Positions 1-12,743 of a stretch of DNA of 12,743 bases are shown piece after piece. Positions within the stretch are counted from its first letter, which is position 1. The number at the start of each line of letters is the position of its first letter. The stretch comes from a virus. Lineage: Duplodnaviria > Heunggongvirae > Uroviricota > Caudoviricetes. The translations under genes were made by a program, and so were the position numbers. Under the pieces are notes generated by a model. That model saw only the letters and a program-made list of their open reading frames with translations, searched no databases and was not told where the DNA came from. The stretch lies in the IMG/VR virus record IMGVR_UViG_2740892230_000006. The stretch is one strand, 5' to 3'.

Positions 1-905
1 CCGATGAGGAAGAGACGCTGTTACGTGTGGATGCGGCGATCAACAAAAAATACCGCCATGCAGACGGAACCGAAATGACTATTTCCCGTGTCTGCTGGGA
101 CATCGGGGGGATCGATGGCGAAATCGTTTATCAGAGGTCAAAAAAACACGGTGTTTTCCGGGTGCTGCCGGNNNNNNNNNNGCAGCGAAACCGTTTTGAG
201 ATGTATGTCTGGGGATGGGCACCGGGAGAGGAAGCCTTTCTGGTGGATAAAATCATCATTATGGGGCGTCCCGATGAGGAAGAGACGCTGTTACGTGTGG
301 ATGCTGCGATCAACAAAAAATATCGCCATGCGGATGGCACCGAAATGACCATTTCCCGTGTCTGCTGGGACACCGGGGGGATCGATGGTGAAATTGTTTA
401 TCAGAGATCAAAAAAACACGGTGTTTTCCGGGTGCTGCCGGTAAAAGGCGCGTCTGTCTATGGCAAGCCGGTGATCACCATGCCGAAAACCCGCAATCAG
501 CGGGGCGTGTATCTGTGTGAAGTGGGGACGGACACCGCAAAAGAAATTCTCTATGCCCGTATGAAAGCCGATCCCACGCCTGCGGATGAAGCCACGTCGT
601 ATGCCATCCGTTTTCCTGATGATCCGGAGATTTTTTCGCAGACAGAGGCGCAGCAACTGGTGGCGGAAGAGCTTGTGGAGAAGTGGGAAAAAGGAAAGAT
701 GCGTCTGCTGTGGGATAACAAAAAGCGGCGTAACGAAGCGCTGGACTGCCTGGTGTATGCCTACGCGGCATTACGTGTGTCCGTGCAACGCTGGCAGCTT
801 GATCTGGCTGTACTGGCAAAATCCCGGGAAGAAGAGACGACCCGGCCAACCCTGAAAGAACTGGCAGCGAAGCTGTCCGGAGGAGTGAATGGTTACAGTC
901 GCTGA
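1..905 (+). CDS. A: Terminase large subunit, C-terminal portion (5'-truncated at window edge); reading frame is open from position 3; positions 1-171 are a near-duplicate of 271-441 across a 10-N gap
   Basis: Translation (...RPDEEETLLRVDAAINKKYRHADGTEMTISRVCWDTGGIDGEIVYQRSKKHGVFRVLPVKGASVYGKPV...KKRRNEALDCLVYAYAALRVSVQRWQLDL...) matches from memory the C-terminus of lambda gpA (...RICWDTGGID...SKKHGLFRVIPIKGASVYGKPV...KKRRNEALDC...RWQLDL). Position immediately upstream of W and portal. Stop TGA at 903-905. Confidence 0.9.
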   Translation, partial: DEEETLLRVDAAINKKYRHADGTEMTISRVCWDIGGIDGEIVYQRSKKHGVFRVLPXXXXQRNRFEMYVWGWAPGEEAFLVDKIIIMGRPDEEETLLRVDAAINKKYRHADGTEMTISRVCWDTGGIDGEIVYQRSKKHGVFRVLPVKGASVYGKPVITMPKTRNQRGVYLCEVGTDTAKEILYARMKADPTPADEATSYAIRFPDDPEIFSQTEAQQLVAEELVEKWEKGKMRLLWDNKKRRNEALDCLVYAYAALRVSVQRWQLDLAVLAKSREEETTRPTLKELAAKLSGGVNGYSR

Positions 906-1095
906 ACTGCAGGCGCTGCGTCAGGCGCGCCTTGATTTATTAACCGGTAAACGGGTGGTGTCTGTCCAGAAAGATGGTCGCAGAATTGAATATACGGCGG
1001 CTTCTCTGGATGAGCTTAACCGGGCGATCAATGATGCGGAGTCGGTACTGGGGACAACCCGGCGTCGCCGTCGTCCGCTGGGAGTGAGGTTATGA
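889..1095 (+). CDS. W: Head-tail joining / head completion protein (gpW-like)
   Basis: 68-aa product MVTVAELQALRQARLDLLTGKRVVSVQKDGRRIEYTAASLDELNRAINDAESVLG...RRRRRP resembles lambda gpW (…[23 protein letters not shown]…) in size and motif. ATG at 889 is preceded by GGAGGAG and overlaps the terminase 3' end; its stop overlaps the portal start as ATGA (1092-1095). Confidence 0.85.
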   Translation: MVTVAELQALRQARLDLLTGKRVVSVQKDGRRIEYTAASLDELNRAINDAESVLGTTRRRRRPLGVRL

Positions 1096-2861
1096 AACGA
1101 ACGCCTGTCCTGATTGATGTGAACGGCGTTCCGCTTCGTGAGAGTCTCAGCTACAACGGGGGCGGCGCAGGATTTGGCGGGCAAATGGCGGAGTGGTTGC
1201 CACCGGCGCAGAGTGCCGATGCGGCCCTGCTGCCCGCGTTGCGTCTGGGGAATGCCCGGGCAGATGATCTGGTGCGCAATAACGGAATAGCGGCCAATGC
1301 GGTGGCACTGCATAAGGATCACATTGTCGGGCATATGTTTCTTATCAGCTACCGTCCGAACTGGCGCTGGCTGGGGATGCGGGAGACCGCAGCAAAAAGC
1401 TTTGTCGATGAGGTGGAGGCGGCCTGGTCGGAATACGCCGAAGGGATGTCTGGCGAGATCGACGTGGAAGGAAAACGCACGTTCACGGAATTTATCCGTG
1501 AAGGTGTGGGCGTTCATGCGTTTAACGGCGAAATCTTTGTGCAGCCGGTCTGGGATACGGAAACCACGCAGTTATTCCGTACGCGTTTTAAAGCCGTGAG
1601 TCCGAAACGGGTGGACACGCCAGGACACGGTATGGGGAACCGTTTTCTGCGGGCCGGTGTGGAGGTCGATCGATATGGCCGTGCCGTCGCGTACCATATT
1701 TGTGAGGATGATTTTCCGTTCTCTGGTAGTGGACGATGGGAACGGATCCCGCGTGAACTTCNNNNNNNNNNGGTGGAGGTCGATCGATATGGCCGTGCCG
1801 TTGCGTACCATATCTGTGAGGATGATTTTCCGTTCTCCGGGAGTGGACGATGGGAACGGATCCCGCGTGAACTTCCCACCGGGCGTCCGGCCATGCTGCA
1901 TATTTTCGAGCCGGTGGAGGACGGGCAGACCCGTGGGGCTAATCAGTTTTACAGCGTCATGGAACGGCTGAAGATGCTGGATTCCCTGCAGGCAACACAG
2001 CTTCAGTCGGCCATTGTGAAAGCCATGTATGCAGCGACGATTGAAAGTGAACTTGATACCGAAAAGGCCTTTGAATATATCGCCGGCGCGCCACAGGAGC
2101 AGAAGGATAATCCGCTTATTAATATTCTGGAGAAGTTCTCCAGCTGGTATGACACGAATAGCGTGACGCTGGGCGGAGTCAAAATTCCGCACCTTTTCCC
2201 TGGTGATGATCTGAAACTACAGACTGCGCAGGATTCAGACAATGGATTTTCGGCGCTTGAACAGGCGCTGCTGCGGTATATCGCCGCCGGTCTTGGCGTT
2301 TCCTACGAACAGTTGTCCCGTGATTACTCGAAGGTCAGTTATTCAAGTGCCAGGGCCTCTGCCAATGAGTCGTGGCGCTATTTTATGGGGCGGCNNNNNN
2401 NNNNCTCAAGTGCCCGCGCCTCCGCCAATGAGTCGTGGCGCTATTTTATGGGGCGGCGAAAATTTATTGCGGCCCGGCTGGCCACGCAGATGTTTTCCTG
2501 CTGGCTGGAAGAGGCACTTCTTCGGGGGATTATCCGTCCGCCACGGGCGCGTTTTGATTTTTATCAGGCGCGATCAGCCTGGTCACGGGCAGAGTGGATT
2601 GGTGCCGGAAGAATGGCCATTGACGGGCTCAAGGAGGTTCAGGAATCGGTGATGCGCATTGAGGCCGGACTGAGCACGTATGAGAAAGAGCTGGCGCTGA
2701 TGGGCGAGGATTATCAGGACATTTTCCGCCAGCAGGTCAGGGAATCTGCAGAGCGGCAAAAAGCCGGACTCTCACGTCCGGTGTGGATAGCGCAGGCGTA
2801 TCAGCAGCAGATAGCGGAGAGTCGCAGGCCGGAAGAGGAGACAACACCCCGTGAGACGTAA
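1092..2861 (+). CDS. B: Portal protein (gpB-like); apparent length is inflated by two scaffold-gap duplications (N at 1762-1771 and 2395-2404)
   Basis: Translation contains lambda gpB hallmarks recalled from memory: GNARADDLVRNNG, HAFNGEIFVQPVWDT, SPKR, HIFEPVEDGQTRGANQFYSVME, LQATQLQSAIVKAMYAATIESELDT, LQTAQDSDNGFSALEQALLRYIAAGLGVSYEQLSRDYSKVSYSSARASANESW, WIGAGRMAIDGLKEVQESVMRIEAGLSTYEKE. Stop TAA at 2859-2861. Confidence 0.92.
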   Translation: MKRTPVLIDVNGVPLRESLSYNGGGAGFGGQMAEWLPPAQSADAALLPALRLGNARADDLVRNNGIAANAVALHKDHIVGHMFLISYRPNWRWLGMRETAAKSFVDEVEAAWSEYAEGMSGEIDVEGKRTFTEFIREGVGVHAFNGEIFVQPVWDTETTQLFRTRFKAVSPKRVDTPGHGMGNRFLRAGVEVDRYGRAVAYHICEDDFPFSGSGRWERIPRELXXXXVEVDRYGRAVAYHICEDDFPFSGSGRWERIPRELPTGRPAMLHIFEPVEDGQTRGANQFYSVMERLKMLDSLQATQLQSAIVKAMYAATIESELDTEKAFEYIAGAPQEQKDNPLINILEKFSSWYDTNSVTLGGVKIPHLFPGDDLKLQTAQDSDNGFSALEQALLRYIAAGLGVSYEQLSRDYSKVSYSSARASANESWRYFMGRXXXXSSARASANESWRYFMGRRKFIAARLATQMFSCWLEEALLRGIIRPPRARFDFYQARSAWSRAEWIGAGRMAIDGLKEVQESVMRIEAGLSTYEKELALMGEDYQDIFRQQVRESAERQKAGLSRPVWIAQAYQQQIAESRRPEEETTPRET

Positions 2862-4617
2862 TCTTTCACACATTATTGCCGCGGCATTCAATGAACCGCT
2901 GCTTCTGGAGCCCGCCTATGCGCGGGTTTTCTTTTGCGCGCTCGGGCGCGAGATGGGGGCAGCAAGTCTTTCGGTACCACAGCAGCAGGTACAGCTTGAT
3001 GCTCCCGGAATGCTGGCTGAAACGGACGAGTACATGGCCGGAGGTAAACGACCGGCCCGTGTTTACCGGGTGGTGAACGGTATTGCTGTACTGCCGGTGA
3101 CCGGCACGCTGGTGCACCGGCTGGGGGGTATGCGGCCATTTTCCGGAATGACAGGCTATGACGGCATTGTCGCCTGTCTTCAGCAGGCAATGGCGGATAG
3201 CCAGGTGCGGGGCGTACTGCTGGACATTGACAGTCCGGGCGGGCAGGCCGCCGGCGCGTTTGACTGCGCTGACATGATTTACCGCCTCCGTCAGCAGAAG
3301 CCGGTCTGGGCACTGTGCAATGACACGGCCTGTTCTGCAGCCATGCTGCTGGCGTCGGCCTGCTCCCGACGGCTGGTTACCCAGACATCCCGTATCGGCT
3401 CCATTGGCGTGATGATGAGCCATGTCAGCTATGCCGGTCATCTGGCGCAGGCCGGTGTGGATATCACGCTGATTTACTCAGGGGCGCACAAGGTGGATGG
3501 CAATCAGTTTGAAGCCTTACCGGCAGAGGTTCGCCAGGACATGCAGCAGCGCATTGATGCGGCGCGCCGGATGTTTGCCGAAAAAGTGGCCATGTTTACC
3601 GGTCTGTCTGTTGATGCCGTCACGGGAACAGAGGCCGCCGTTTTTGAAGGTCAGTCCGGCATTGATGCCGGGCTGGCGGATGAATTAGTCAATGCGTCGG
3701 ATGCCATCAGTGTGATGGCCACGGCGCTGAACAGTAATGTCAGAGGAGGCACTATGCCGCAATTAACTGCAACGGAAGCCGCCGCGCAGGAGAACCAGCG
3801 AGTGATGGGGATCCTGACATGCCAGGAAGCGAAAGGACGTGAACAGCTTGCCACGATGCTGGCAGGACAACAGGGCATGAGCGTTGAACAGGCCCGGGCG
3901 ATTCTGGCCGCGGCGGCACCGCAGCAGCCGGTGGCATCCACGCAGAGTGAAGCCGATCGCATTATGGCGTGTGAAGAAGCGAACGGTCGTGAACAACTGG
4001 CGGCAACGCTGGCGGCGATGCCGGAGATGACGGTGGAAAAAGCCCGCCCGATCCTGGCTGCTTCACCGCAGGCGGATGCCGGACCCTCACTCCGTGATCA
4101 GATCATGGCACTGGATGAGGCAAAAGGGGCTGAGGCGCAGGCTGAACAGCTGGCTGCCTGCCCGGGAATGACTGTGGAGAGCGCCCGGGCTGTGCTGGCT
4201 GCGGGATCAGGTAAGNNNNNNNNNNTTGGCTGCCTCACCGCAGGCGAATGCCGGGCCCTCACTTCGTGATCAGATCATGGCCCTGGATGAGGCAAAAGGG
4301 GCAGAAGCGCAGGCTGAAAAACTGGCGGCCTGCCCGGGAATGACCGTGGAGAACGCCCGGGCTGTGCTGGCTGCGGGATCAGGTAAGGCAGAACCGGTCT
4401 CTGCATCCACAACCGCCCTGTTTGAACGCATCATGGCGAACCATTCACCGGCAGCGGTACAGGGTGGCGTGCCACAGACGTCAGCAGACGGTGATGCGGA
4501 CGTGAANNNNNNNNNNATTTCATGGCGAATCATTCACCGGCAGCGGTGCGGGGTGGCGTGTCACAGACGTCAGCAGACGGTGATGCGGACGTGAAAATGC
4601 TCATGGCCATGCCATGA
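2851..4617 (+). CDS. C: Head maturation protease / scaffold fusion (gpC-like, S49/SppA-family serine peptidase N-terminal domain with a Nu3-like scaffold C-terminal region); GTG start; frame apparently broken by scaffold gaps at 4216-4225 and 4507-4516
   Basis: N-terminus ...AAFNEPLLLEPAYARVFFCAL... then ...VVNGIAVLPVTGTLV...MTGYDGIVACLQQA...LLDIDSPGGQAAGAFDCADMIYRLRQQKPVWALCNDTACSAAMLLASACSRRLVTQTSRIGSIGVMMSH...ITLIYSGAHKVDGNQF...AVFEGQSGIDAGLADELVN matches the lambda gpC pattern recalled from memory. GTG at 2851 overlaps the portal stop. The terminal ...SADGDADVKMLMAMP is followed by TGA at 4615-4617. Confidence 0.85.
3754..4617 (+). CDS. nu3: Nu3-like scaffolding protein, internal in-frame start nested in the 3' part of the C gene
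   Basis: ATG at 3754-3756 is in the C frame and preceded by AGAGGAGG (3743-3750) at ideal spacing. The downstream sequence MPQLTATEAAAQENQRVMGILTCQEAKGREQ... parallels lambda Nu3 (…ENSRIMGILNCEEAHGREEQ…), which in lambda is made from an internal start within C. Confidence 0.55.
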
Positions 4618-4653
4618 AGTCAGTGCTGACCATCAACAGGAGGTTTTTACAAT

Positions 4654-5291
4654 ATGGTAACGAAAACCATCACTGAACAGCGTGCGGAAGTACGTATTTT
4701 TGCCGGTAATGATCCGGCTCATACCGCCACAGGCAGCAGCGGGATTTCNNNNNNNNNNTATGAGGTTTTAACAAAATGGTGACGAAAACCATCACTGAAC
4801 AGCGTGCGGAAGTACNNNNNNNNNNCTCGGCAACACCGGCACTGACGCCCCTGATGCTGGATGAAGCCAGCGGGAAACTGGTGGTCTGGGACGGACAGAA
4901 AGCCGGTAGTGCGGTTGGCATACTGGNNNNNNNNNNTTCTGCAACACCGGCTCTGACGCCCCTGATGCTGGATGAAGCCACCGGGAAACTGGTGGTCTGG
5001 GATGGACAGAAAGCCGGTAGTGCGGTTGGCATACTGGNNNNNNNNNNGTGCCCTGAGTCACGCGGCGCTGCCGTAACACGTTATCAGGCCACCGCGGTGG
5101 CCTGACTGATTTCTGAATGAAAGGAACTGNNNNNNNNNNTACTGCCGCTTGAAGGCACAGAGACGGTACTGACCTATTACAAGTCGGGGACCTTTGCGAC
5201 GGAGGCAATCCGCTGGCCTGACAGTGTGGATGAACACAAAAAGGCAAATGCCTTTGCCGGCACAGCCCTGAGTCACGCGGCTCTGCCGTAA
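4654..5291 (+). CDS. D: Head decoration protein (gpD-like); the scaffold interleaves variant fragments across five 10-N gaps (4749-5139), so the true gene is shorter (about 110 codons)
   Basis: AGGAGG at 4638-4643 then ATG at 4654. Fragments translate to [32 protein letters not shown] / [33 protein letters not shown] / ...[44 protein letters not shown], matching lambda gpD motifs (…[37 protein letters not shown]…GAAVGIL…TFYKSGTF…AFAGTA…). Stop TAA at 5289-5291. Confidence 0.8.
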
Positions 5292-5299
5292 CACGTTAT

Positions 5300-5319
5300 C
5301 AGGCCACCATGGTGGCCTG
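5300..5319 (+). repeat. Perfect 20-bp palindrome CAGGCCACCATGGTGGCCTG in the D-E intergenic region; a variant copy CAGGCCACCGCGGTGGCCTG lies at 5085-5104
   Basis: Read directly from the sequence. Both variant copies are perfectly self-complementary, and the two differences are at symmetric central positions (GC to AT). Confidence 0.45.
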
Positions 5320-5348
5320 ACTGATTTCTGAATGAAAGGAACTGATTT

Positions 5349-6531
5349 ATGGGATTGTTTACGACCCGCCAGTTACTCGGTTATACCGAACAAAAAGTGA
5401 AATTTCGTGCGCTGTTTCTGGAGCTGTTTTTCCGCCGTACGGTGAATTTCCATACCGAAGAGGTGATGCTGGACAAAATTACCGGAAAAACGCCGGTGGC
5501 GGCCTATGTCTCCCCGGTTGTTGAAGGAAAAGTGCTGCGTCATCGCGGTGGTGAAACCCGCGTGTTACGTCCGGGCTACGTCAAGCCGAAACACGAATTT
5601 AATTACCAGCAGGCGGTTGAGCGTCTTCCCGGTGAAGATCCGGCTCAACTGAACGACCCGGCCTACCGTCGTCTGCGTATCATCACCGATAACCTCAAAC
5701 AGGAAGAGCATGCCATTGTCCAGGTGGAAGAAATGCAGGCGGTGAATGCCGTGCTGTATGGCAAATACACCATGGAAGGGGATCAGTTTGATACTGTCGA
5801 GGTGGATTTTGGACGCTCTGAAGGAAATAACATTGAGCAGGCCGACGGTAAAAAATGGTCTGAGCAGGACCGTGATACGTTTGATCCGACGCATGATATT
5901 GACCTCTACTGCGATCAGGCCAGCGGTCTTGTGAATATTGCCATTATGGACGGTACTGTCTGGCGTCTGCTGAATGGTTTTAAGCTGTTCCNNNNNNNNN
6001 NCCTTGTGAATATCGCCATTATGGACGGTACGGTCTGGCGTCTGCTGAATGGCTTTAAGCTGTTCCNNNNNNNNNNCCTGGGGGCGGTGGTGTCTTTCAA
6101 AGGGTATTACGGCGATCTGGCCATTGTGGTGGCGANNNNNNNNNNGCGAAAAACTGGATACCCGTCGCGGCTCAAATTCACAACTCGAAACGGCAGTGAA
6201 AGATCTGGGCGCAGTGGTGTCCTTCAAGGGGTATTACGGCGATCTGGCCATTGTGGTGGCGAAAACGTCTTATGTGGCAGAGGACGGTACCGAAAAACGT
6301 TATCTGCCGGAGGGCATGCTGGTGCTGGGGAATACGGCGGCAGAGGGGATTCGTTGCTATGGTGCCATTAAGGATGCACAGGCGTTGTCTGAAGGAGTGG
6401 TGGCTTCTTCCCGTTACCCGAAACACTGGCTGACCGTGGGCGATCCGTCCTGTGAATTCACCATGACGCAGTCCGCTCCGCTGATGGTGCTGCCGGATCC
6501 GGATGAGTTTGTGGTGGTGCAGGTGAAATAA
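5349..6531 (+). CDS. E: Major capsid protein (gpE-like); frame interrupted by scaffold gaps at 5992-6001, 6067-6076 and 6136-6145 with duplicated flanks
   Basis: MGLFTTRQLLGYTEQKVKFRALFLELFFRR...GGETRVLRPGYVKPKHEFNYQQAVERLPGEDPAQLNDPAYRRLRIITDNLKQEEHAIVQVEEMQAVNAVLYGKYTMEGDQFDTVEVDFGRSEGNNIEQ...KLDTRRGSNSQLETAVKDLGAVVSFKGYYGDLAIVV...LPEGMLVLGNT...RYPKHWLTVGDPSCEFTMTQSAPLMVLPDPDEFVVVQVK* matches lambda gpE along its whole length from memory. Stop TAA at 6529-6531. Confidence 0.92.
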
Positions 6532-6538
6532 TCCGTGA

Positions 6539-6568
6539 GCGGGGGCGAAATGCCCCCGTGTCTTTTTT
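6539..6568 (+). terminator. Candidate intrinsic terminator/attenuator hairpin downstream of the major capsid gene
   Basis: GC-rich stem GGGGGC (6541-6546) / GCCCCC (6552-6557), loop GAAAT, optionally extended by one G-C pair and a G-U wobble, immediately followed by TCTTTTTT (6561-6568). It lies between the E stop (6531) and the FI start (6583). Confidence 0.5.
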
Positions 6569-6661
6569 CACAGGGGGCTGATATGGCAACAAAAGAAGAA
6601 AATCAGAAACGTCTTCGTCAACTGGCTGGCCTGCTGGGGCGCGNNNNNNNNNNAGGCTGAG

Positions 6662-7045
6662 ATGGCAACAAAAGAAGAAAATCTGAATCGTCTTCGTCAA
6701 CTGGCTGGCCTGCTGGGGCGCGAGGCGGATATGTCGGGGAGTGCTGCGGATATTGCTCAACGTGTGTCTGAGTGGGAAGAGGAGCTTGCTGTTTCCCCGG
6801 AGGGCATTATGCACTCTGATGAGAGCGGGGCTGATCAAAATCACACAGACGATGGTGAGCAGTTGAACAACACGGATGCTCCGGATGATGTTAAAGCCGT
6901 CCGGGTACGGAAGTGCCTGCAAGTAATGGGGTATTGCCCGGAGACAGGTCGTCCCGTTGAGCTGGCGTTACGGGGTATGCGTGTTCTGGTGCCATCATCA
7001 CTGGCAACGGCCATGATACAGCACGGAACGGCTGAATATGCGTGA
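6662..7045 (+). CDS. FI: DNA-packaging protein FI-like; complete copy carried on a short variant contig bounded by N-runs at 6644-6653 and 7072-7081
   Basis: 127-aa acidic product MATKEENLNRLRQLAGLLGREADMSGSAADIAQRVSEWEEEL... with C-terminal ...GRPVELALRGMRVLVPSSLATAMIQHGTAEYA, the same architecture as lambda gpFI. Sits between E and FII. A truncated first start of the same gene occurs at 6583-6643. Confidence 0.8.
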   Translation: MATKEENLNRLRQLAGLLGREADMSGSAADIAQRVSEWEEELAVSPEGIMHSDESGADQNHTDDGEQLNNTDAPDDVKAVRVRKCLQVMGYCPETGRPVELALRGMRVLVPSSLATAMIQHGTAEYA

Positions 7046-7081
7046 TTTTCAGAATGCCTTTGATGCTGCCCNNNNNNNNNN

Positions 7082-7370
7082 GCAACGTGTGTCTGAGTGG
7101 GAAGAGGAGCTTGCTGCTTCCCGGGAGGGCATTATGCCTGGTGATGAGAGCGGGCCTGAGCAAAATCACACAGACGATGGTGAGCAGTTGCACAACACTG
7201 ATGCTACGGATGATGTTAAAGCGGTCCGTGTGCGGAAATGCCTGCATGTGATGGGGTATTGCCCGGAGACAGGCCGTCCCGTTGAACTGACGTACCGGGG
7301 CATGCGTGTTCTGGTGCCATCACCACTGGCGACAGCCATGATACAGCACGGAACGGCTGAGCATGCGTGA
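7082..7370 (+). CDS. FI: 3' portion of a second FI allele, belonging with the main contig and probably continuous with the FI start at 6583 that is interrupted by the scaffold gap
   Basis: Translates in frame to ...QRVSEWEEELAASREGIMPGDESGPEQNHTDDGEQLHNTDATDDVKAVRVRKCLHVMGYCPETGRPVELTYRGMRVLVPSPLATAMIQHGTAEHA*, a diverged paralogue of 6662-7045. The stop overlaps the FII start as ATGCGTGA at 7363-7370. Confidence 0.55.
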
Positions 7371-7716
7371 TTTTCAGAATGCCTTTGATGCTGCCCTCGC
7401 CGGGGTAGACAGTACGATCGTTGAAGTGATGGGGCTCTGTGCGCAGTTCACCTCGGGGGCACAGTGTGGCAGCGAAGTTCAGGGGGTTTTTGACGATCCG
7501 GAGTCGCTGGGGTTTGCCGGTGGCGGGGTCCGTATTGAAGGAAGCAGCCCGTCATTATTTGTGCGGACGGATACGGTTCGTGCCGTGCGGCGTGGTGACA
7601 CGCTGACCATTAATGGTGAGATATTCTGGGTGGATCGTGTTTCTCCGGATGACGGGGGCAGCTGTTATCTCTGGCTCAACCGTGGGCAACCACCCGCAGT
7701 TAACCGGCGACGATAA
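7363..7716 (+). CDS. FII: Head completion / head-tail connector protein FII-like
   Basis: MRDFQNAFDAA...GVFDDPES...GGGVRIEGSSPSLFVRTDTVRAVRRGDTLTINGEIFWVDRVSPDDGGSCYLWLNRGQPPAVNRRR matches lambda gpFII (…VFDDPEN…VEGSSPSLFVRTDEVRQLRRGDTLTI…FWVDRVSPDDGGSCHLWL…PPAVNRRR) from memory. Stop TAA at 7714-7716. Confidence 0.9.
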   Translation: MRDFQNAFDAALAGVDSTIVEVMGLCAQFTSGAQCGSEVQGVFDDPESLGFAGGGVRIEGSSPSLFVRTDTVRAVRRGDTLTINGEIFWVDRVSPDDGGSCYLWLNRGQPPAVNRRR

Positions 7717-7731
7717 ACGCAGGGTGAAATT

Positions 7732-8265
7732 ATGGCGATAAAAGGGCTTGATCAGGCGATTGACAATCTGAGCCGGGTTCGTAAAAACGCCATTCCGGCG
7801 GCTTCAGCAATGGCCATTAACCGCGTGGCCACAACGGCGATTAATCAGTCTTCATCACAGGTTGCCCGGGAGACAAAGGTTCGCCGGAAACTGGTTAAGG
7901 AACGGTCCAGACTGAAACGGGCGACGGTCAGAAATCCGAATGCCAGAATTATCGTTAACCGCGGTGATCTCCCTGTGATTAAGCTGGGGATCAGGATGCC
8001 GGGGCGTCGCCCGGACAGCATACTTAAAGCCGGTCAGCATCGGTATCAGCGGGCATTTATTCAGCGATTAAAAAATGGTCGCTGGCATGTCATGCAGCGT
8101 GTGGCCGGGAAAAACCGTTACCCCATTGATGTGGTGAAAATCCCGATGGCGGTGCCGCTTACCACGGCGTTTAAACAGAATATTGAACGGATACGGCGTG
8201 AACGTCTTCCGAAAGAGCTGGGCTATGCGCTGCAGCATCAACTGAGAATGGTAATAAAGCGATGA
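7732..8265 (+). CDS. Z: Tail completion protein Z-like
   Basis: MAIKGLDQAIDNLSRVRKNAIPAASAMAINRVATTAINQSSSQVARETKVRRKLVKERSRLKRATV...[69 protein letters not shown] is near-identical to lambda gpZ as recalled. Its stop overlaps the U start as ATGA (8262-8265). Confidence 0.93.
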   Translation: MAIKGLDQAIDNLSRVRKNAIPAASAMAINRVATTAINQSSSQVARETKVRRKLVKERSRLKRATVRNPNARIIVNRGDLPVIKLGIRMPGRRPDSILKAGQHRYQRAFIQRLKNGRWHVMQRVAGKNRYPIDVVKIPMAVPLTTAFKQNIERIRRERLPKELGYALQHQLRMVIKR

Positions 8266-8657
8266 AACATACTGAACTCCGTGCAGCCGTACTGGATGCA
8301 CTGGAGAAGCATGACACCGGGGCGACGCTTTTTGATGGTCGCCCCGCTGTTTTTGATGAGGCGGATTTTCCGGCAGTTGCCGTTTATCTCACCGGCGCTG
8401 AATACACGGGCGAAGAGCTGGACAGCGATACCTGGCAGGCGGAGCTGCATATTGAAGTTTTCCTGCCTGCTCAGGTACCGGATTCAGAGCTGGATGCGTG
8501 GATGGAGTCCCGGATTTATCCGGTGATGAGCGATGTCCCGGCACTGTCAGATTTGATCACCAGTATGGTGGCCAGTGGCTATGACTACCGGCGCGACGAT
8601 GATGCGGGCCTGTGGAGTTCAGCCGATCTGACTTATGTCATTACCTATGAAATGTGA
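8262..8657 (+). CDS. U: Tail tube terminator protein U-like
   Basis: [91 protein letters not shown]...[27 protein letters not shown] is essentially the lambda gpU sequence as recalled. Confidence 0.93.
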
Positions 8658-8664
8658 GGACGAT

Positions 8665-9597
8665 ATGCCTGTACCAAATCCAATAATGCCGGTGAAAGGG
8701 GCCGGGACCACACTGTGGGTTTATAAGGGGAACGGTGACCCTTATGCGAACCCGCTTTCAGACGTTGACTGGTCGCGTCTGGCTAAAGTTAAAGACCTGA
8801 CGCCCGGCGAACTGACCGCTGAGTCCTATGACGACAGCTATCTCGATGATGAAGATGCGGACTGGACTGCGACCGGGCAGGGGCAGAAATCTGCCGGAGA
8901 TACCAGCTTCACGCTGGCGTGGATGCCCGGAGAGCAGGGGCAGCAGGCGCTGCTGGCGTGGTTTAATGAAGGGGATACCCGTGCCTATAAAATCCGCTTC
9001 CCGAACGGCACGGTCGATGTGTTCCGCGGCTGGGTCAGCAGTATCGGTAAGGCGGTGACGGCGAAGGAAGTGATCACCCGTACGGTGAAGGTCACCAATG
9101 TGGGCCGTCCGTCAATGGCAGAAGATCGCAGTACGGTAACAGCGGCAACCGGTATGACCGTGACGCCTGCCAGCTCCTCGGTGGTGAAAGGGCAGGGCAC
9201 CACGCTGACCGTGGCATTCCAGCCGGAGGGCGCAACTGACAAGAGCTTCCGTGCGGTGTCAGNNNNNNNNNNCACGGTGAAAGTCACCAACGTGGGACGT
9301 CCGTCGATGGCAGAAGATCGCAGCACGGTAACAGCGGCAACCGGCATGACCGTGACGCCTGCCAGCACTTCGGTGGTGAAAGGGCAGAGCACCACGCTGA
9401 CCGTGGCATTCCAGCCGGAAGGCGCAACCGACAAGAGTTTCCGTGCGGTGTCTGCGGATAAAACAAAAGCCACCGTGTCGGTCAGTGGTATGACCATCAC
9501 CGTGAAAGGTGTTGCTGCAGGCAAGGTCAACATTCCGGTTGTATCCGGTAATGGTGAACTTGCTGTGGTTGCAGAAATCACCGTCACCGACAGTTAA
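8665..9597 (+). CDS. V: Major tail tube protein V-like with C-terminal Ig-like (Big_2-type) domain; the ORF-track start at 8635 is probably an upstream in-frame extension; a scaffold gap at 9263-9272 duplicates part of the Ig-like region
   Basis: ATG at 8665 preceded by GAGGA (8656-8660). [136 protein letters not shown]... matches lambda gpV from memory (which starts MPVPNPTMPVKG). The C-terminal ...[11 protein letters not shown]...[70 protein letters not shown]... is the Ig-like domain. Stop TAA at 9595-9597. Confidence 0.92.
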
Positions 9598-9612
9598 TCC
9601 GGAGAGTCAGCG

Positions 9613-10035
9613 ATGTTCCTGAAAACCGAATCATTTGAATATAACGGTGTGAGCGTCACGCTTTCTGAACTGTCAGCCCTGCAGCGAATTGAGCATCTCG
9701 CCCAGCTGAAACGACAGGCAGAACAGGCGGGATCCAGTCTCAATCGACAGGTGAGCGTGGAAGATCTCGTCAGAACCGGTGCTTTTCTGGTGGCGATGTC
9801 CCTGTGGCATAGCCATCCGCAGAAGACAAAGATGCCGTCCATGAATGAAGCCGTTAAACAAATTGAGCAGGAAGTGCTTACCACCTGGCCCACAGAGGCA
9901 ATTGCTCAGGCTGAAAATGTGGTAATGCGTCTGTCCGGTATGTCTGAGTTTGTTGTGAATGATGCACCTGAACAGGCAGATGACGCCGGGCCAGCAGAGC
10001 CTGTTTCTGCGGGAAAGTGTTCGACGGTGAGCTGA
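9613..10035 (+). CDS. G: Tail assembly chaperone G-like
   Basis: MFLKTESFEYNGVSVTLSELSALQRIEHLAQLKRQAEQ...VRTGAFLVAMSLWHSHPQKTKMPSMNEAVKQIEQEVLTTWPTEAIAQAENVVMRLSGMSEFVVNDAPEQADDAGPAEPVSAGKCSTVS* is near-identical to lambda gpG as recalled. GGAGAG lies upstream of ATG 9613. Confidence 0.93.
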   Translation: MFLKTESFEYNGVSVTLSELSALQRIEHLAQLKRQAEQAGSSLNRQVSVEDLVRTGAFLVAMSLWHSHPQKTKMPSMNEAVKQIEQEVLTTWPTEAIAQAENVVMRLSGMSEFVVNDAPEQADDAGPAEPVSAGKCSTVS

Positions 10036-10451
10036 GTTTTGCCCTGAAACTGGCGCGTGAGATGGGGCGACCTGACTGGCGCGCCATGCTTGCCGGGATG
10101 TCATCCACGGAGTATGCCGACTGGCACCGCTTTTACAGTACCCATTATTTTCATGATGTTCTGCTGGATATGCACTTTTCCGGGCTGACGTACACCGTAC
10201 TCAGCCTGTTTTTCAGCGATCCGGATATGCATCCGCTGGATTTCAGTCTGCTGAACCGGCGCGAGGCTGACGAAGAGCCTGAAGATGATGTGCTGATGCA
10301 GAAAGCGGCAGGGCTTGCCGGAGGCGTCCGCTTTGGCCCGGACGGGAATGAAGTTATCCCCGCTTCCCCGGATGTGGCGGACATGACGGAGGATGACGTA
10401 ATGCTGATGACAGTATCAGAAGGGATCGCAGGAGGAGTCCGGTATGGCTGA
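9613..10451 (+). CDS. G-T: Tail assembly chaperone G-T fusion, made by -1 frameshift at 10011-10017
   Basis: The T-frame ORF (10017-10451) has no independent ribosome-binding site or plausible start and is entered only from G by the -1 shift. Its product ...FDGELSFALKLAREMGRPDWRAMLAGMSSTEYADWHRFYSTHYFHDVLLDMHFSGLTYTVLSLFFSDPDMHPLDFSLLNRREADEEPEDDVLMQKAAGLAGGVRFGPDGNEVIPASPDVADMTEDDVMLMTVSEGIAGGVRYG* matches lambda gpT as recalled. Confidence 0.85.
10011..10017 (+). promoter_or_regulatory. Programmed -1 ribosomal frameshift slippery heptamer G GGA AAG (G to G-T)
   Basis: In the G frame the codons are GCG GGA AAG TGT (...SAGKCSTVS*). A -1 slip on GGGAAAG re-reads GGG AAA GTG TTC GAC GGT GAG CTG... 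giving ...GKVFDGELSFALKLAREMGRPDW..., the T reading frame. This is the heptamer and position of the classic lambda G-T frameshift. Confidence 0.85.
10017..10451 (+). CDS. T: T-domain reading frame of the tail assembly chaperone (expressed only as the G-T frameshift product)
   Basis: Same as the G-T fusion. Stop TGA at 10449-10451 overlaps the H start ATG at 10444-10446. Confidence 0.8.
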   Translation: MFDGELSFALKLAREMGRPDWRAMLAGMSSTEYADWHRFYSTHYFHDVLLDMHFSGLTYTVLSLFFSDPDMHPLDFSLLNRREADEEPEDDVLMQKAAGLAGGVRFGPDGNEVIPASPDVADMTEDDVMLMTVSEGIAGGVRYG

Positions 10452-12743
10452 ACCGGTAGGCGATCTGGTCGTTGATTTGAGTCTGGATGCGGCCAGATTT
10501 GACGAGCAGATGGCCAGAGTCAGGCGTCATTTTTCCGGTACGGAAAGTGATGCGAAAAAAACAGCGGCAGTCGTTGAACAGTCGATGAACCGGCAGGCGC
10601 TGGCTGCACAGAAAGCGGGAATTTCCGTCGGGCAGTATAAAGCCGCCATGCGTATGCTGCCTGCGCAGTTCACTGACGTGGCCACGCAGCTTGCAGGCGG
10701 GCAAAGTCCGTGGCTGATCCTGCTGCAACAGGGGGGTCAGGTGAAGGACTCCTTCGGCGGGATGATCCCCATGTTCAGGGGGCTTGCCGGTGCGATCACC
10801 CTGCCGATGGTGGGGGCTACCTCGCTGGCGGTGGCGACCGGAGCGCTGGCGTATGCCTGGTATCAGGGCAACTCAACCCTGTCCGATTTCAACAAAACGC
10901 TGGTCCTTTCCGGCAATCAGGCGGGACTGACGGCAGATCGTATGCTGGTCCTGTCCAGAGCCGGGCAGGCGGCAGGGCTGACGTTTAACCAGACCAGCGA
11001 GTCACTCAGCGCACTGGTTAAGGCGGGGGTAAGCGGTGAGGCTCAGATTGCGTCCATCAGCCAGAGTGTGGCGCGTTTCTCCTCTGCATCCGGCGTGGAG
11101 GTGGACAAGGTCGCTGAAGCCTTCGGGAAGCTGACCACAGACCCGACGTCGGGGCTGACGGCGATGGCACGCCAGTTCCATAACGTGACGGCGGAGCAGA
11201 TTGCGTATGTTGCTCAGTTGCAGCGTTCCGGCGATGAAGCCGGGGCATTGCAGGCGGCGAACGAGGCCGCAACGAAAGGGTTTGATGACCAGACCCGACG
11301 CTTGAAAGAGAACATGGGCACGCTGGAAACCTGGGCAGACAGGACAGCACGGGCATTCAAATCCATGTGGGATGCGGTGCTGGATATTGGTCGTCCTGAT
11401 ACCGCGCAGGAGATGCTGATTAAGGCAGAGGCCGCGTTTAAGAAAGCGGACGATATCTGGAATCTGCGCAAGGATGATTATTTTGTTAACGATGAAGCGC
11501 GGGCGCGTTACTGGGATGATCGTGAAAAGGCCCGTCTTGCGCTTGAAGCCGCCCGAAAGAAGGCTGAGCAGCAGACTCAACAGGACAAAAATGCGCAGCA
11601 GCAGAGCGATACCGAAGCGTCACGGCTGAAATACACCGAAGAGGCGCAGAAGGCTTACGAACGCCTGCAGACGCCGCTGGAGAAATATACCGCCCGTCAG
11701 GAAGAACTGAATAAGGCCCTGAAAGACGGGAAAATCCTGCAGGCGGATTACAACACGCTGATGGCGGCGGCGAAAAAGGATTATGAAGCGACGCTGAAAA
11801 AGCCGAAACAGTCCGGCGTGAAGGTGTCTGCGGGCGATCGTCAGGAAGACAGTGATCATGCTGCCCTGCTGACGCTTCAGGCAGAACTCCGGACGCTGGA
11901 GAAGCATGCCGGAGCAAATGAGAAAATCAGCCAGCAGCGCCGGGATTTGTGGAAGGCGGAGAGTCAGTTCGCGGTACTGGAGGAGGCGGCGCAACGTCGC
12001 CAGCTGTCTGCACAGGAGAAATCCCTGCTGGCGCATAAAGATGAGACGCTGGAGTACAAACGCCAGCTGGCTGCACTTGGCGACAAGGTTACGTATCAGG
12101 AGCGCCTGAACGCGCTGGCGCAGCAGGCGGATAAATTCGCACAGCAGCAACGGGCAAAACGGGCCGCCATTGATGCGAAAAGCCGGGGGCTGACTGACCG
12201 GCAGGCAGAACGGGAAGCCACGGAACAGCGCCTGAAGGAACAGTATGGCGATAATCCGCTGGCGCTGAATAACATCATGTCAGAGCAGAAAAAGACCTGG
12301 GCGGCTGAAGACCAGCTTCGCGGGAACTGGATGGCAGGCCTGAAGTCCGGCTGGAGTGAGTGGGAAGAGAGCGCCACGGACAGTATGTCGCAGGTAAAAA
12401 GTGCAGCCACGCAGACCTTTGACGGTATTGCACAGAATATGGCGGCGATGCTGACCGGCAGTGAGCAGAACTGGCGCAGCTTCACCCGTTCCGTGCTGTC
12501 CATGATGACAGAAATTCTGCTTAAGCAGGCAATGGTGGGGATTGTCGGGAGTATCGGCAGCGCTATTGGCGGGGCTGTTGGTGGCGGCGCATCCGCGTCA
12601 GGCGGTACAGCCATTCAGGCCGCTGCGGCGAAATTCCATTTTGCAACCGGAGGATTTACGGGAACCGGCGGCAAATATGAGCCAGCGGGGATTGTTCACC
12701 GTGGTGAGTTTGTCTTCACGAAGGAGGCAACCAGCCGGATTGG
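10444..12743 (+). CDS. H: Tail tape measure protein H-like, 3'-truncated at window end (about 766 codons present)
   Basis: MAEPVGDLVVDLSLDAARFDEQMARVRRHFSGTESDAKKTAAVVEQSMNRQALAAQKAGISVGQYKAAMRMLPAQFTDVATQLAGGQSPWLILLQQGGQVKDSFGGMIPMF... running to ...GGKYEPAGIVHRGEFVFTKEATSRIG at the window edge with no stop. It is near-identical to lambda gpH as recalled. Absent from the ORF track only because no stop codon falls in the window. Confidence 0.93.
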   Translation, partial: MAEPVGDLVVDLSLDAARFDEQMARVRRHFSGTESDAKKTAAVVEQSMNRQALAAQKAGISVGQYKAAMRMLPAQFTDVATQLAGGQSPWLILLQQGGQVKDSFGGMIPMFRGLAGAITLPMVGATSLAVATGALAYAWYQGNSTLSDFNKTLVLSGNQAGLTADRMLVLSRAGQAAGLTFNQTSESLSALVKAGVSGEAQIASISQSVARFSSASGVEVDKVAEAFGKLTTDPTSGLTAMARQFHNVTAEQIAYVAQLQRSGDEAGALQAANEAATKGFDDQTRRLKENMGTLETWADRTARAFKSMWDAVLDIGRPDTAQEMLIKAEAAFKKADDIWNLRKDDYFVNDEARARYWDDREKARLALEAARKKAEQQTQQDKNAQQQSDTEASRLKYTEEAQKAYERLQTPLEKYTARQEELNKALKDGKILQADYNTLMAAAKKDYEATLKKPKQSGVKVSAGDRQEDSDHAALLTLQAELRTLEKHAGANEKISQQRRDLWKAESQFAVLEEAAQRRQLSAQEKSLLAHKDETLEYKRQLAALGDKVTYQERLNALAQQADKFAQQQRAKRAAIDAKSRGLTDRQAEREATEQRLKEQYGDNPLALNNIMSEQKKTWAAEDQLRGNWMAGLKSGWSEWEESATDSMSQVKSAATQTFDGIAQNMAAMLTGSEQNWRSFTRSVLSMMTEILLKQAMVGIVGSIGSAIGGAVGGGASASGGTAIQAAAAKFHFATGGFTGTGGKYEPAGIVHRGEFVFTKEATSRI

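Follow-up and report, generated by a model that had tools for sequence, protein, structure and literature searches.

Three diverged copies of a scaffold module in the phage-21-type head protease gene of an Escherichia coli prophage

Herpesvirus UL26 and UL26.5 form a scaffold-protease pair with a common C-terminus, the shared region of which targets the protease to the procapsid, and in the P22 scaffold a C-terminal helix-turn-helix exemplifies how small helical elements contact the coat protein. Among tailed phages, lambda C/Nu3 likewise combines a protease with a scaffold; incorporation of the lambda portal depends on Nu3, which associates with itself and with C and, according to two-hybrid tests, also with E (PMC3224144). 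Here we analyze the head protease/scaffold gene of the IMG/VR record IMGVR_UViG_2740892230_000006, a 12,743-nt stretch of Caudoviricetes DNA hereafter called the window, in which three consecutive related units had been noticed from the sequence alone. The gene almost certainly belongs to a lambdoid prophage of E. coli and is head gene 5 of the phage 21 type with gene 6 nested in it, equivalent to C/Nu3 of lambda, and the three units are with similar certainty the Tri1, Tri and Tri3 boxes of phage 21.

The triplication is already on public record as the ordinary architecture of the phage 21 head protease/scaffold gene. GenBank record M81255.1, which we take to accompany the paper of Smith and Feiss (1993) on the head operon of phage 21, lists the repeat_region features ‘Tri1 box’, ‘Tri box’ and ‘Tri3 box’ in gene 6 with the note ‘function unknown; putative’. 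The finding is publicly annotated because these boxes, at positions 5542-5645, 5682-5792 and 5823-5936 of the record, map to 3821-3924, 3961-4071 and 4102-4215 of the window, inside units 1, 2 and 3, respectively. The nucleotide identity of the region to phage 21 genes 5/6 is 98.9% (M81255.1 and OL657228), and OL657228 counters the possibility that gene 5/6 of phage 21, which was sequenced in 1993 and again in 2022, would lack these units in virion DNA. Moreover, the three-unit gene 6 (603 nt) is present in 1864 of 5426 complete E. coli genomes (coverage at least 80%; 92-100% identity among the records listed), at 2922 places in total and up to five per genome. The earlier suggestion that a three-unit array might be unusual is thus not borne out, and as a discovery the triplication carries little weight, being both annotated in M81255.1 and among the commonest prophage head-gene alleles in E. 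coli. The sequence-only reading had allowed that well-assembled homologues might show the same three units, which proves true of the 21-type phages but not of lambda, where C/Nu3 has, as that reading had stated, a single unit (one profile match, aa 362-400).

The assignment of the gene rests on its sequence, domain content and position. The window holds its first 1365 nt at 2851..4215 on the plus strand as a stop-free translation of 455 codons with a GTG start, whereas in a complete genome the full-length gene measures 1506 nt, encodes 501 aa and has exactly three units. Several complete E. coli chromosomes, for example NZ_CP027544.1, contain the 1365-nt stretch at 100% identity under the annotation ‘S49 family peptidase’. 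In complete E. coli chromosomes the order of genes is terminase, head-tail joining protein, portal, S49 peptidase, decoration protein and major capsid protein, and the pieces of the window are collinear with the annotated NZ_CP027544.1 prophage, placing the protease/scaffold gene between the portal and the decoration/capsid genes. A Peptidase_S49 domain occupies aa 146-293 (3286..3729, plus strand; Pfam PF01343, E 7e-35, 120.7 bits against a cut-off of 24.9), and the NCBIfam SppA_dom model also matches, at E 4e-31 but under its own cut-off, so that the protease has the S49 (SppA-like) domain of a lambda C/Nu3-type protein. Downstream of the domain, a Shine-Dalgarno sequence GAGGAGG at 3743-3749 and an in-frame ATG at 3754-3756 (3743..3756, plus strand) mark the predicted start of the nested gene 6, the lambda Nu3 counterpart, and M81255.1 annotates a putative ribosome-binding site and the start of the gene 6 coding sequence at the matching positions. 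The sequence thus provides the internal start of a separate scaffold sharing the C-terminus of the protease: the N-terminal two thirds of the protein are an S49 serine peptidase, and the C-terminal 200 residues are predicted to be separately translated from the internal ATG.

The units, each about 40 residues long, follow one another as diverged copies in the C-terminal scaffold part of the protease. All lie on the plus strand, unit 1 (RVMGILTCQEAKGREQLATMLAGQQGMSVEQARAILAAAAPQQP) at 3799..3930 (aa 317-360), unit 2 (DRIMACEEANGREQLAATLAAMPEMTVEKARPILAASPQADAGP) at 3955..4086 (aa 369-412) and unit 3 (DQIMALDEAKGAEAQAEQLAACPGMTVESARAVLAAGSGK) at 4096..4215 (aa 416-455), and the peptides quoted for them in the sequence-only reading occur exactly in the translation. 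Their relationship is evident from alignment, since unit-versus-unit BLOSUM62 local scores of 83-101 exceed those of shuffled sequences, which average about 24 (z 12-17) and never attain the observed value in 2000 shuffles, and pairs of units share 19-23 identities across 36-37 aligned residues. The lambda unit matches each of them at z 15-20. The three window units, the lambda unit and 17 units of relatives can be lined up without gaps when anchored on an EAxG(R/A)E turn, and a MAFFT alignment of the same set with the lambda unit left out retains seven invariant columns. The signature of the modules reads I-[LM]-x-[LC]-x-E-A-K-G-R-E-x-L-A-x-x-L-A-x-x-P-G-M-T-V-E-x-A-[KR]-x-[IL]-L-A-A-A-P.

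The possibility that the repeat number was created or collapsed in a short-read assembly of a multi-prophage genome deserves attention in this window, as 16 runs of exactly ten N divide it into 17 assembly pieces. When these pieces were aligned by BLAST to a complete E. coli prophage, neighbors were found to overlap on the reference, to be alleles of each other or to be slightly out of order; in addition, this protein is represented in databases by many entries marked as ‘partial’ fragments. However, all three units lie on a single uninterrupted 1811-nt piece (2405-4215) that matches a complete E. coli chromosome at 99.8% identity, and with a DNA identity of only 53-61% they are too diverged to confuse an assembler. 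The identical copy of the gene in complete chromosomes, the phage 21 sequences of 1993 and 2022 and the 1864 complete genomes all agree with the count. An assembly artifact is thereby ruled out and its probability is negligible, in keeping with the earlier statement that the units, being different from one another, do not stem from the gap that follows them.

The gap itself, an N10 joint at 4216..4225 (no strand), is the junction of two assembly pieces and not a real gap in the gene. Beyond it, the piece at 4226..4506 (plus strand), 95.7% identical to the reference, overlaps unit 3 and runs into the C-terminal tail. It maps to 11205-11484 of the reference locus L004, while the preceding piece ends at L004 11365, and because these positions overlap, the copy after the joint (4226-4386) is an allele of unit 3 and had rightly been left out of the count; the complete genome has exactly three units. 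The 4226-4506 piece appears to be the copy of a sibling prophage and holds no fourth unit. The piece that comes next (4517-4748) again overlaps its predecessor on the reference and is an allele of the tail, its part at 4517..4617 on the plus strand (…FMANHSPAAVRGGVSQTSADGDADVKMLMAMP) ending with a TGA stop at 4615-4617.

The gene as found in the complete genome agrees with phage 21 gp5/gp6 in its 1506-nt length, in where the nested gene 6 starts and in the positions of its three units; the differences are a few amino-acid substitutions, such as A/V in unit 2, along with differences in the tail and the breakage of the window copy by joints. The likeness to lambda gpC/gpNu3 extends to the S49 domain, the nested in-frame scaffold gene, the position between the portal and the decoration/capsid genes and a related C-terminal tail, but in lambda C (439 aa) a single unit takes the place of three, and that unit is most similar to window unit 1. 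In lambda, 64 residues of unstructured linker separate the S49 domain from the unit as opposed to 23 residues in phage 21, and the annotated start of nu3 lies inside the end of the S49 domain, whereas gene 6 of phage 21 starts just before the unit. The annotated scaffolds are of nearly equal size, 200 aa for phage 21 gp6 (L001 2404-3006) and 201 aa for lambda Nu3 (L003 2333-2938), in spite of their different make-up: gp6 has three units, whereas Nu3 consists of the S49 domain end, a long linker and a single unit, its start being annotated further upstream. Salmonella Gifsy-type and other enterobacterial proteins (P0029, P0033, P0068, P0092) have the architecture of the window gene with units orthologous position by position, although the identity in the scaffold region is 47-64%.

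The matching scaffold sizes raise the question of whether the units act mainly through their length, as bulk or spacer that determines how far the scaffold chain reaches and replaces the unstructured linker of lambda. The shorter distance between the S49 domain and the first unit in phage 21 would agree with such length compensation, as would the persistence of alleles with a half-deleted unit 2. On the other hand, the region following the S49 domain still differs in total length, 208 aa in the 21 type versus 142 aa in lambda, and a spacer role is weakened because all three units have kept the full signature, including the EAxG(R/A)E turn, after long divergence while the linkers drift. We therefore consider a mainly spacing function unlikely, albeit the most credible of the competing explanations.

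An AlphaFold model of the 199-aa gp6 equivalent (P0002, 17 sequences) has three short helices per unit and two more in the tail, with a predicted local distance difference test score (pLDDT) of about 76-84 within the units and 62-69 or lower in the linkers, and a predicted template modeling score of 0.28 that corresponds to beads on a string. The same three helices are predicted for a lone unit at a pLDDT of 82. Each unit is thus modeled as a small three-helix module, the linkers between them as flexible and rich in Pro, Gln and Ala, and the array as followed by a tail of about 46 residues. No Pfam or NCBIfam family exceeds its cut-off on the unit, a sequence search with the unit profile among PDB chains gave no match, and matches in PHROGs are just to generic ‘head scaffolding’, ‘capsid assembly’ and unknown families. 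The closest approach to a named fold is a match of helix-hairpin-helix family PF00633, which might indicate nucleic-acid-binding repeats but stays below the gathering threshold (13.1 bits against 24, E 0.093) and concerns unit 3 only. In addition, the units are acidic to neutral, and scaffold proteins exit the shell before or during DNA entry; membership in this family is rejected and a nucleic-acid-binding role is highly improbable.

A conserved module of this kind may instead be a protein-protein contact element of the scaffold, involved in its self-association or in binding the portal or the major capsid protein. Three such modules on flexible linkers would provide more contact points and more reach per scaffold chain than lambda Nu3 possesses, and the C-terminal region common to protease and scaffold would allow the protease to be co-assembled into the procapsid. 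The sequence-only reading had likewise suggested that an expanded scaffold region could affect the interaction of scaffold and capsid. We put forward this role for the unit, and for the triplication as a source of added contacts or reach, tentatively and at slightly less than even confidence. Several points weigh against it. By analogy with the herpesvirus and P22 scaffolds, the conserved C-terminal tail and not the unit could be the capsid-binding element. Alleles that have lost half of unit 2 (6 of 80 loci) or a whole unit (P0020, P0021) suggest that three intact copies may not be strictly needed, unless those prophages are defective. A literature search on the Tri box, phage 21 head genes, the EAKGRE motif and gpNu3 structure or function, whose coverage did not extend to the original phage 21 head-operon paper, found no paper specific to the unit, and the GenBank note on the Tri boxes itself reads ‘function unknown’. 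The parallels with herpesvirus UL26/UL26.5 and the P22 scaffold are in any case a functional analogy only, as phage 21 gp6 is no member of those families: sequence and fold comparison with the two systems revealed no sequence or significant fold similarity, nor was any such similarity to solved structures of P22-type or phi29-type scaffolds detected.

A different role is conceivable for the EAKGRE turn, the most conserved stretch of the unit. Every unit might carry a cut site for the gpC-type protease gp5, for example at E-A/K-G (slashes mark cut sites and junctions throughout), in which case more units would mean more cuts, with the pieces leaving the procapsid. C is thought to degrade Nu3 in lambda (PMC3224144), and the leader of the lambda portal protein B is removed after ...LREYA/GYHG (NC_001416 annotation; L003 37-102), which loosely resembles EA/KG. 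The resemblance, however, amounts to two residues and may be a coincidence, the search gave no cleavage-site data for S49 prohead proteases, and a conserved 40-residue folded module would be unnecessary around a cut site. Processing cassettes are therefore improbable, well behind the spacer explanation, and we retain the contact element as the preferred role of the unit. Taken as a whole, the explanation presented here, comprising the identity, anatomy, history and mechanism of the array, is in our judgment very probably the best available.

To place the unit among other proteins, a profile built from 20 units was compared with 1.84 billion representative proteins, yielding 973 clusters at E ≤0.001 and 82 at E ≤1e-10. 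Representatives were obtained for the best 150 of the 973 clusters sorted by score and are consequently biased towards multi-unit proteins. Even so, 134 of the 144 listed representatives have one unit, eight have two and two have three, and among full-length listed proteins (at least 380 aa) 55 out of 57 have one. The median distance from the last unit to the C-terminus is 49 residues in the listed representatives, and a lone unit at about this distance is clearly the norm of this protein family. The tail after the unit follows a loose common pattern, a short L-D/E-x-x-M helix, a Pro-containing stretch and an amphipathic end. Two units are also found in the distant, more divergent representatives P0106, P0158, P0189 and P0213, which is consistent with duplications having arisen more than once.

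Among 162 diverged units, conservation is strongest at I, E-A-x-G-R-E, A, L-A, M, A, L and P, and in the charged EAKGRE turn the E, A, G, R and E are each conserved at 90-98%, as expected of a functional surface. The unit is hence a widespread and well-conserved scaffold module that lies outside curated families and solved structures. The three-helix EAKGRE module could even be the defining element of S49-type prohead protease/scaffold proteins and its copy number an evolvable dial for scaffold valency, so that a chain with the triple module of the 21 type would bind as many as three capsid or portal subunits; copy numbers among enterobacterial prophages range from 1 to 4. We regard this extension as possible but rather doubtful. 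Whichever role applies, the natural one- to four-copy alleles are a ready-made series for probing lambda-type scaffold contacts in procapsid assembly.

The triplication itself is old in the 21-type lineage. Units at the same position in Salmonella and other relatives are 82%, 75% and 60% similar to units 1-3, respectively, versus 46-53% among siblings, and because each unit is closer to its positional counterparts than to its siblings, the triplication is older than the divergence of these phage lineages, leaving the units of the E. coli and Salmonella relatives orthologous by position. Tandem Repeats Finder did not detect the array, and the direct DNA seeds in it are just 12-22 nt long, at spacings of 150 and 153 nt; a recent slippage or tandem duplication at the DNA level is excluded on these grounds.

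Copy number has nevertheless changed since then. One unit is found in lambda and P0089, two in the E. coli variants P0020 and P0021, three in the 21 type, Salmonella, P0068, P0076 and P0067, and four in the E. coli variant P0027, of which the last three are 80-85% alike and thus point to a younger amplification. The two-unit junctions lie inside a unit in P0020 (GMSVEQAR/PILAAS) and in a linker in P0021, and these two variants together with P0027 look like the footprints of unequal recombination between units or linkers, which judging from the junctions and unit similarities would later have given the alleles with 2, about 2.5 and 4 units. The variants come from a first search for homologous proteins that returned mostly partial fragments and was used for spotting copy-number variants, not for statistics. 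A scan of IMG/VR with the unit profile reached near-identical E. coli prophages only, so that its results are informative on allele counts but not on diversity: among the 80 loci whose unit 1 is identical, three units are present in 72 and a part-deleted unit 2 in six, while the other two are incomplete, one through a stop and one through the end of its contig. The recurring deletion allele lacks 22 residues in frame, whereby helices 2-3 of unit 2 are gone (…EEANGREQLAA/APLADAGP…) and two and a half units are left; it is carried by the IMG/VR loci L010, L022, L040, L045, L048 and L063, at about 3190-3260 of each locus, and also by P0016.

A few database proteins have more extensive rearrangements. 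In P0001 (283 aa) loss of the entire S49 domain brings the first 76 residues of gp5 right up to the scaffold region, and P0100 (382 aa) carries a deletion, in frame, that begins at the end of the S49 domain and reaches into unit 2; these two are probably genes of decayed prophages. P0143 (844 aa) and P0134 (582 aa) are in-frame fusions of lambda C, the former with a tape-measure-like segment at the N-terminus and the latter with additional sequence at the C-terminus, and are most likely chimeric assemblies or engineered lambda vectors and not natural genes.

As regards the remainder of the window (1-12743), the N10 runs start at 172, 1762, 2395, 4216, 4507, 4749, 4816, 4927, 5038, 5130, 5992, 6067, 6136, 6644, 7072 and 9263, and open reading frames that span such a joint are not real. 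The pieces look like an ordered series of contigs assembled from short reads of a genome that harbors several sibling lambdoid prophages. The pieces 4826-4926 and 4937-5037 both correspond to L004 11638-11738 as different alleles of the same stretch, and the piece 5048-5129 is out of order, its place on the reference being after the start of 5140-5991. The last piece of the window aligns to the reference prophage over part of its length only. Over the tail-gene part at 7082-12743, identity to the reference prophage is no more than 80-90%, compared with 99-100% for the head genes, and from these identities the tail-gene module would be mosaic or derive from a different sibling prophage.
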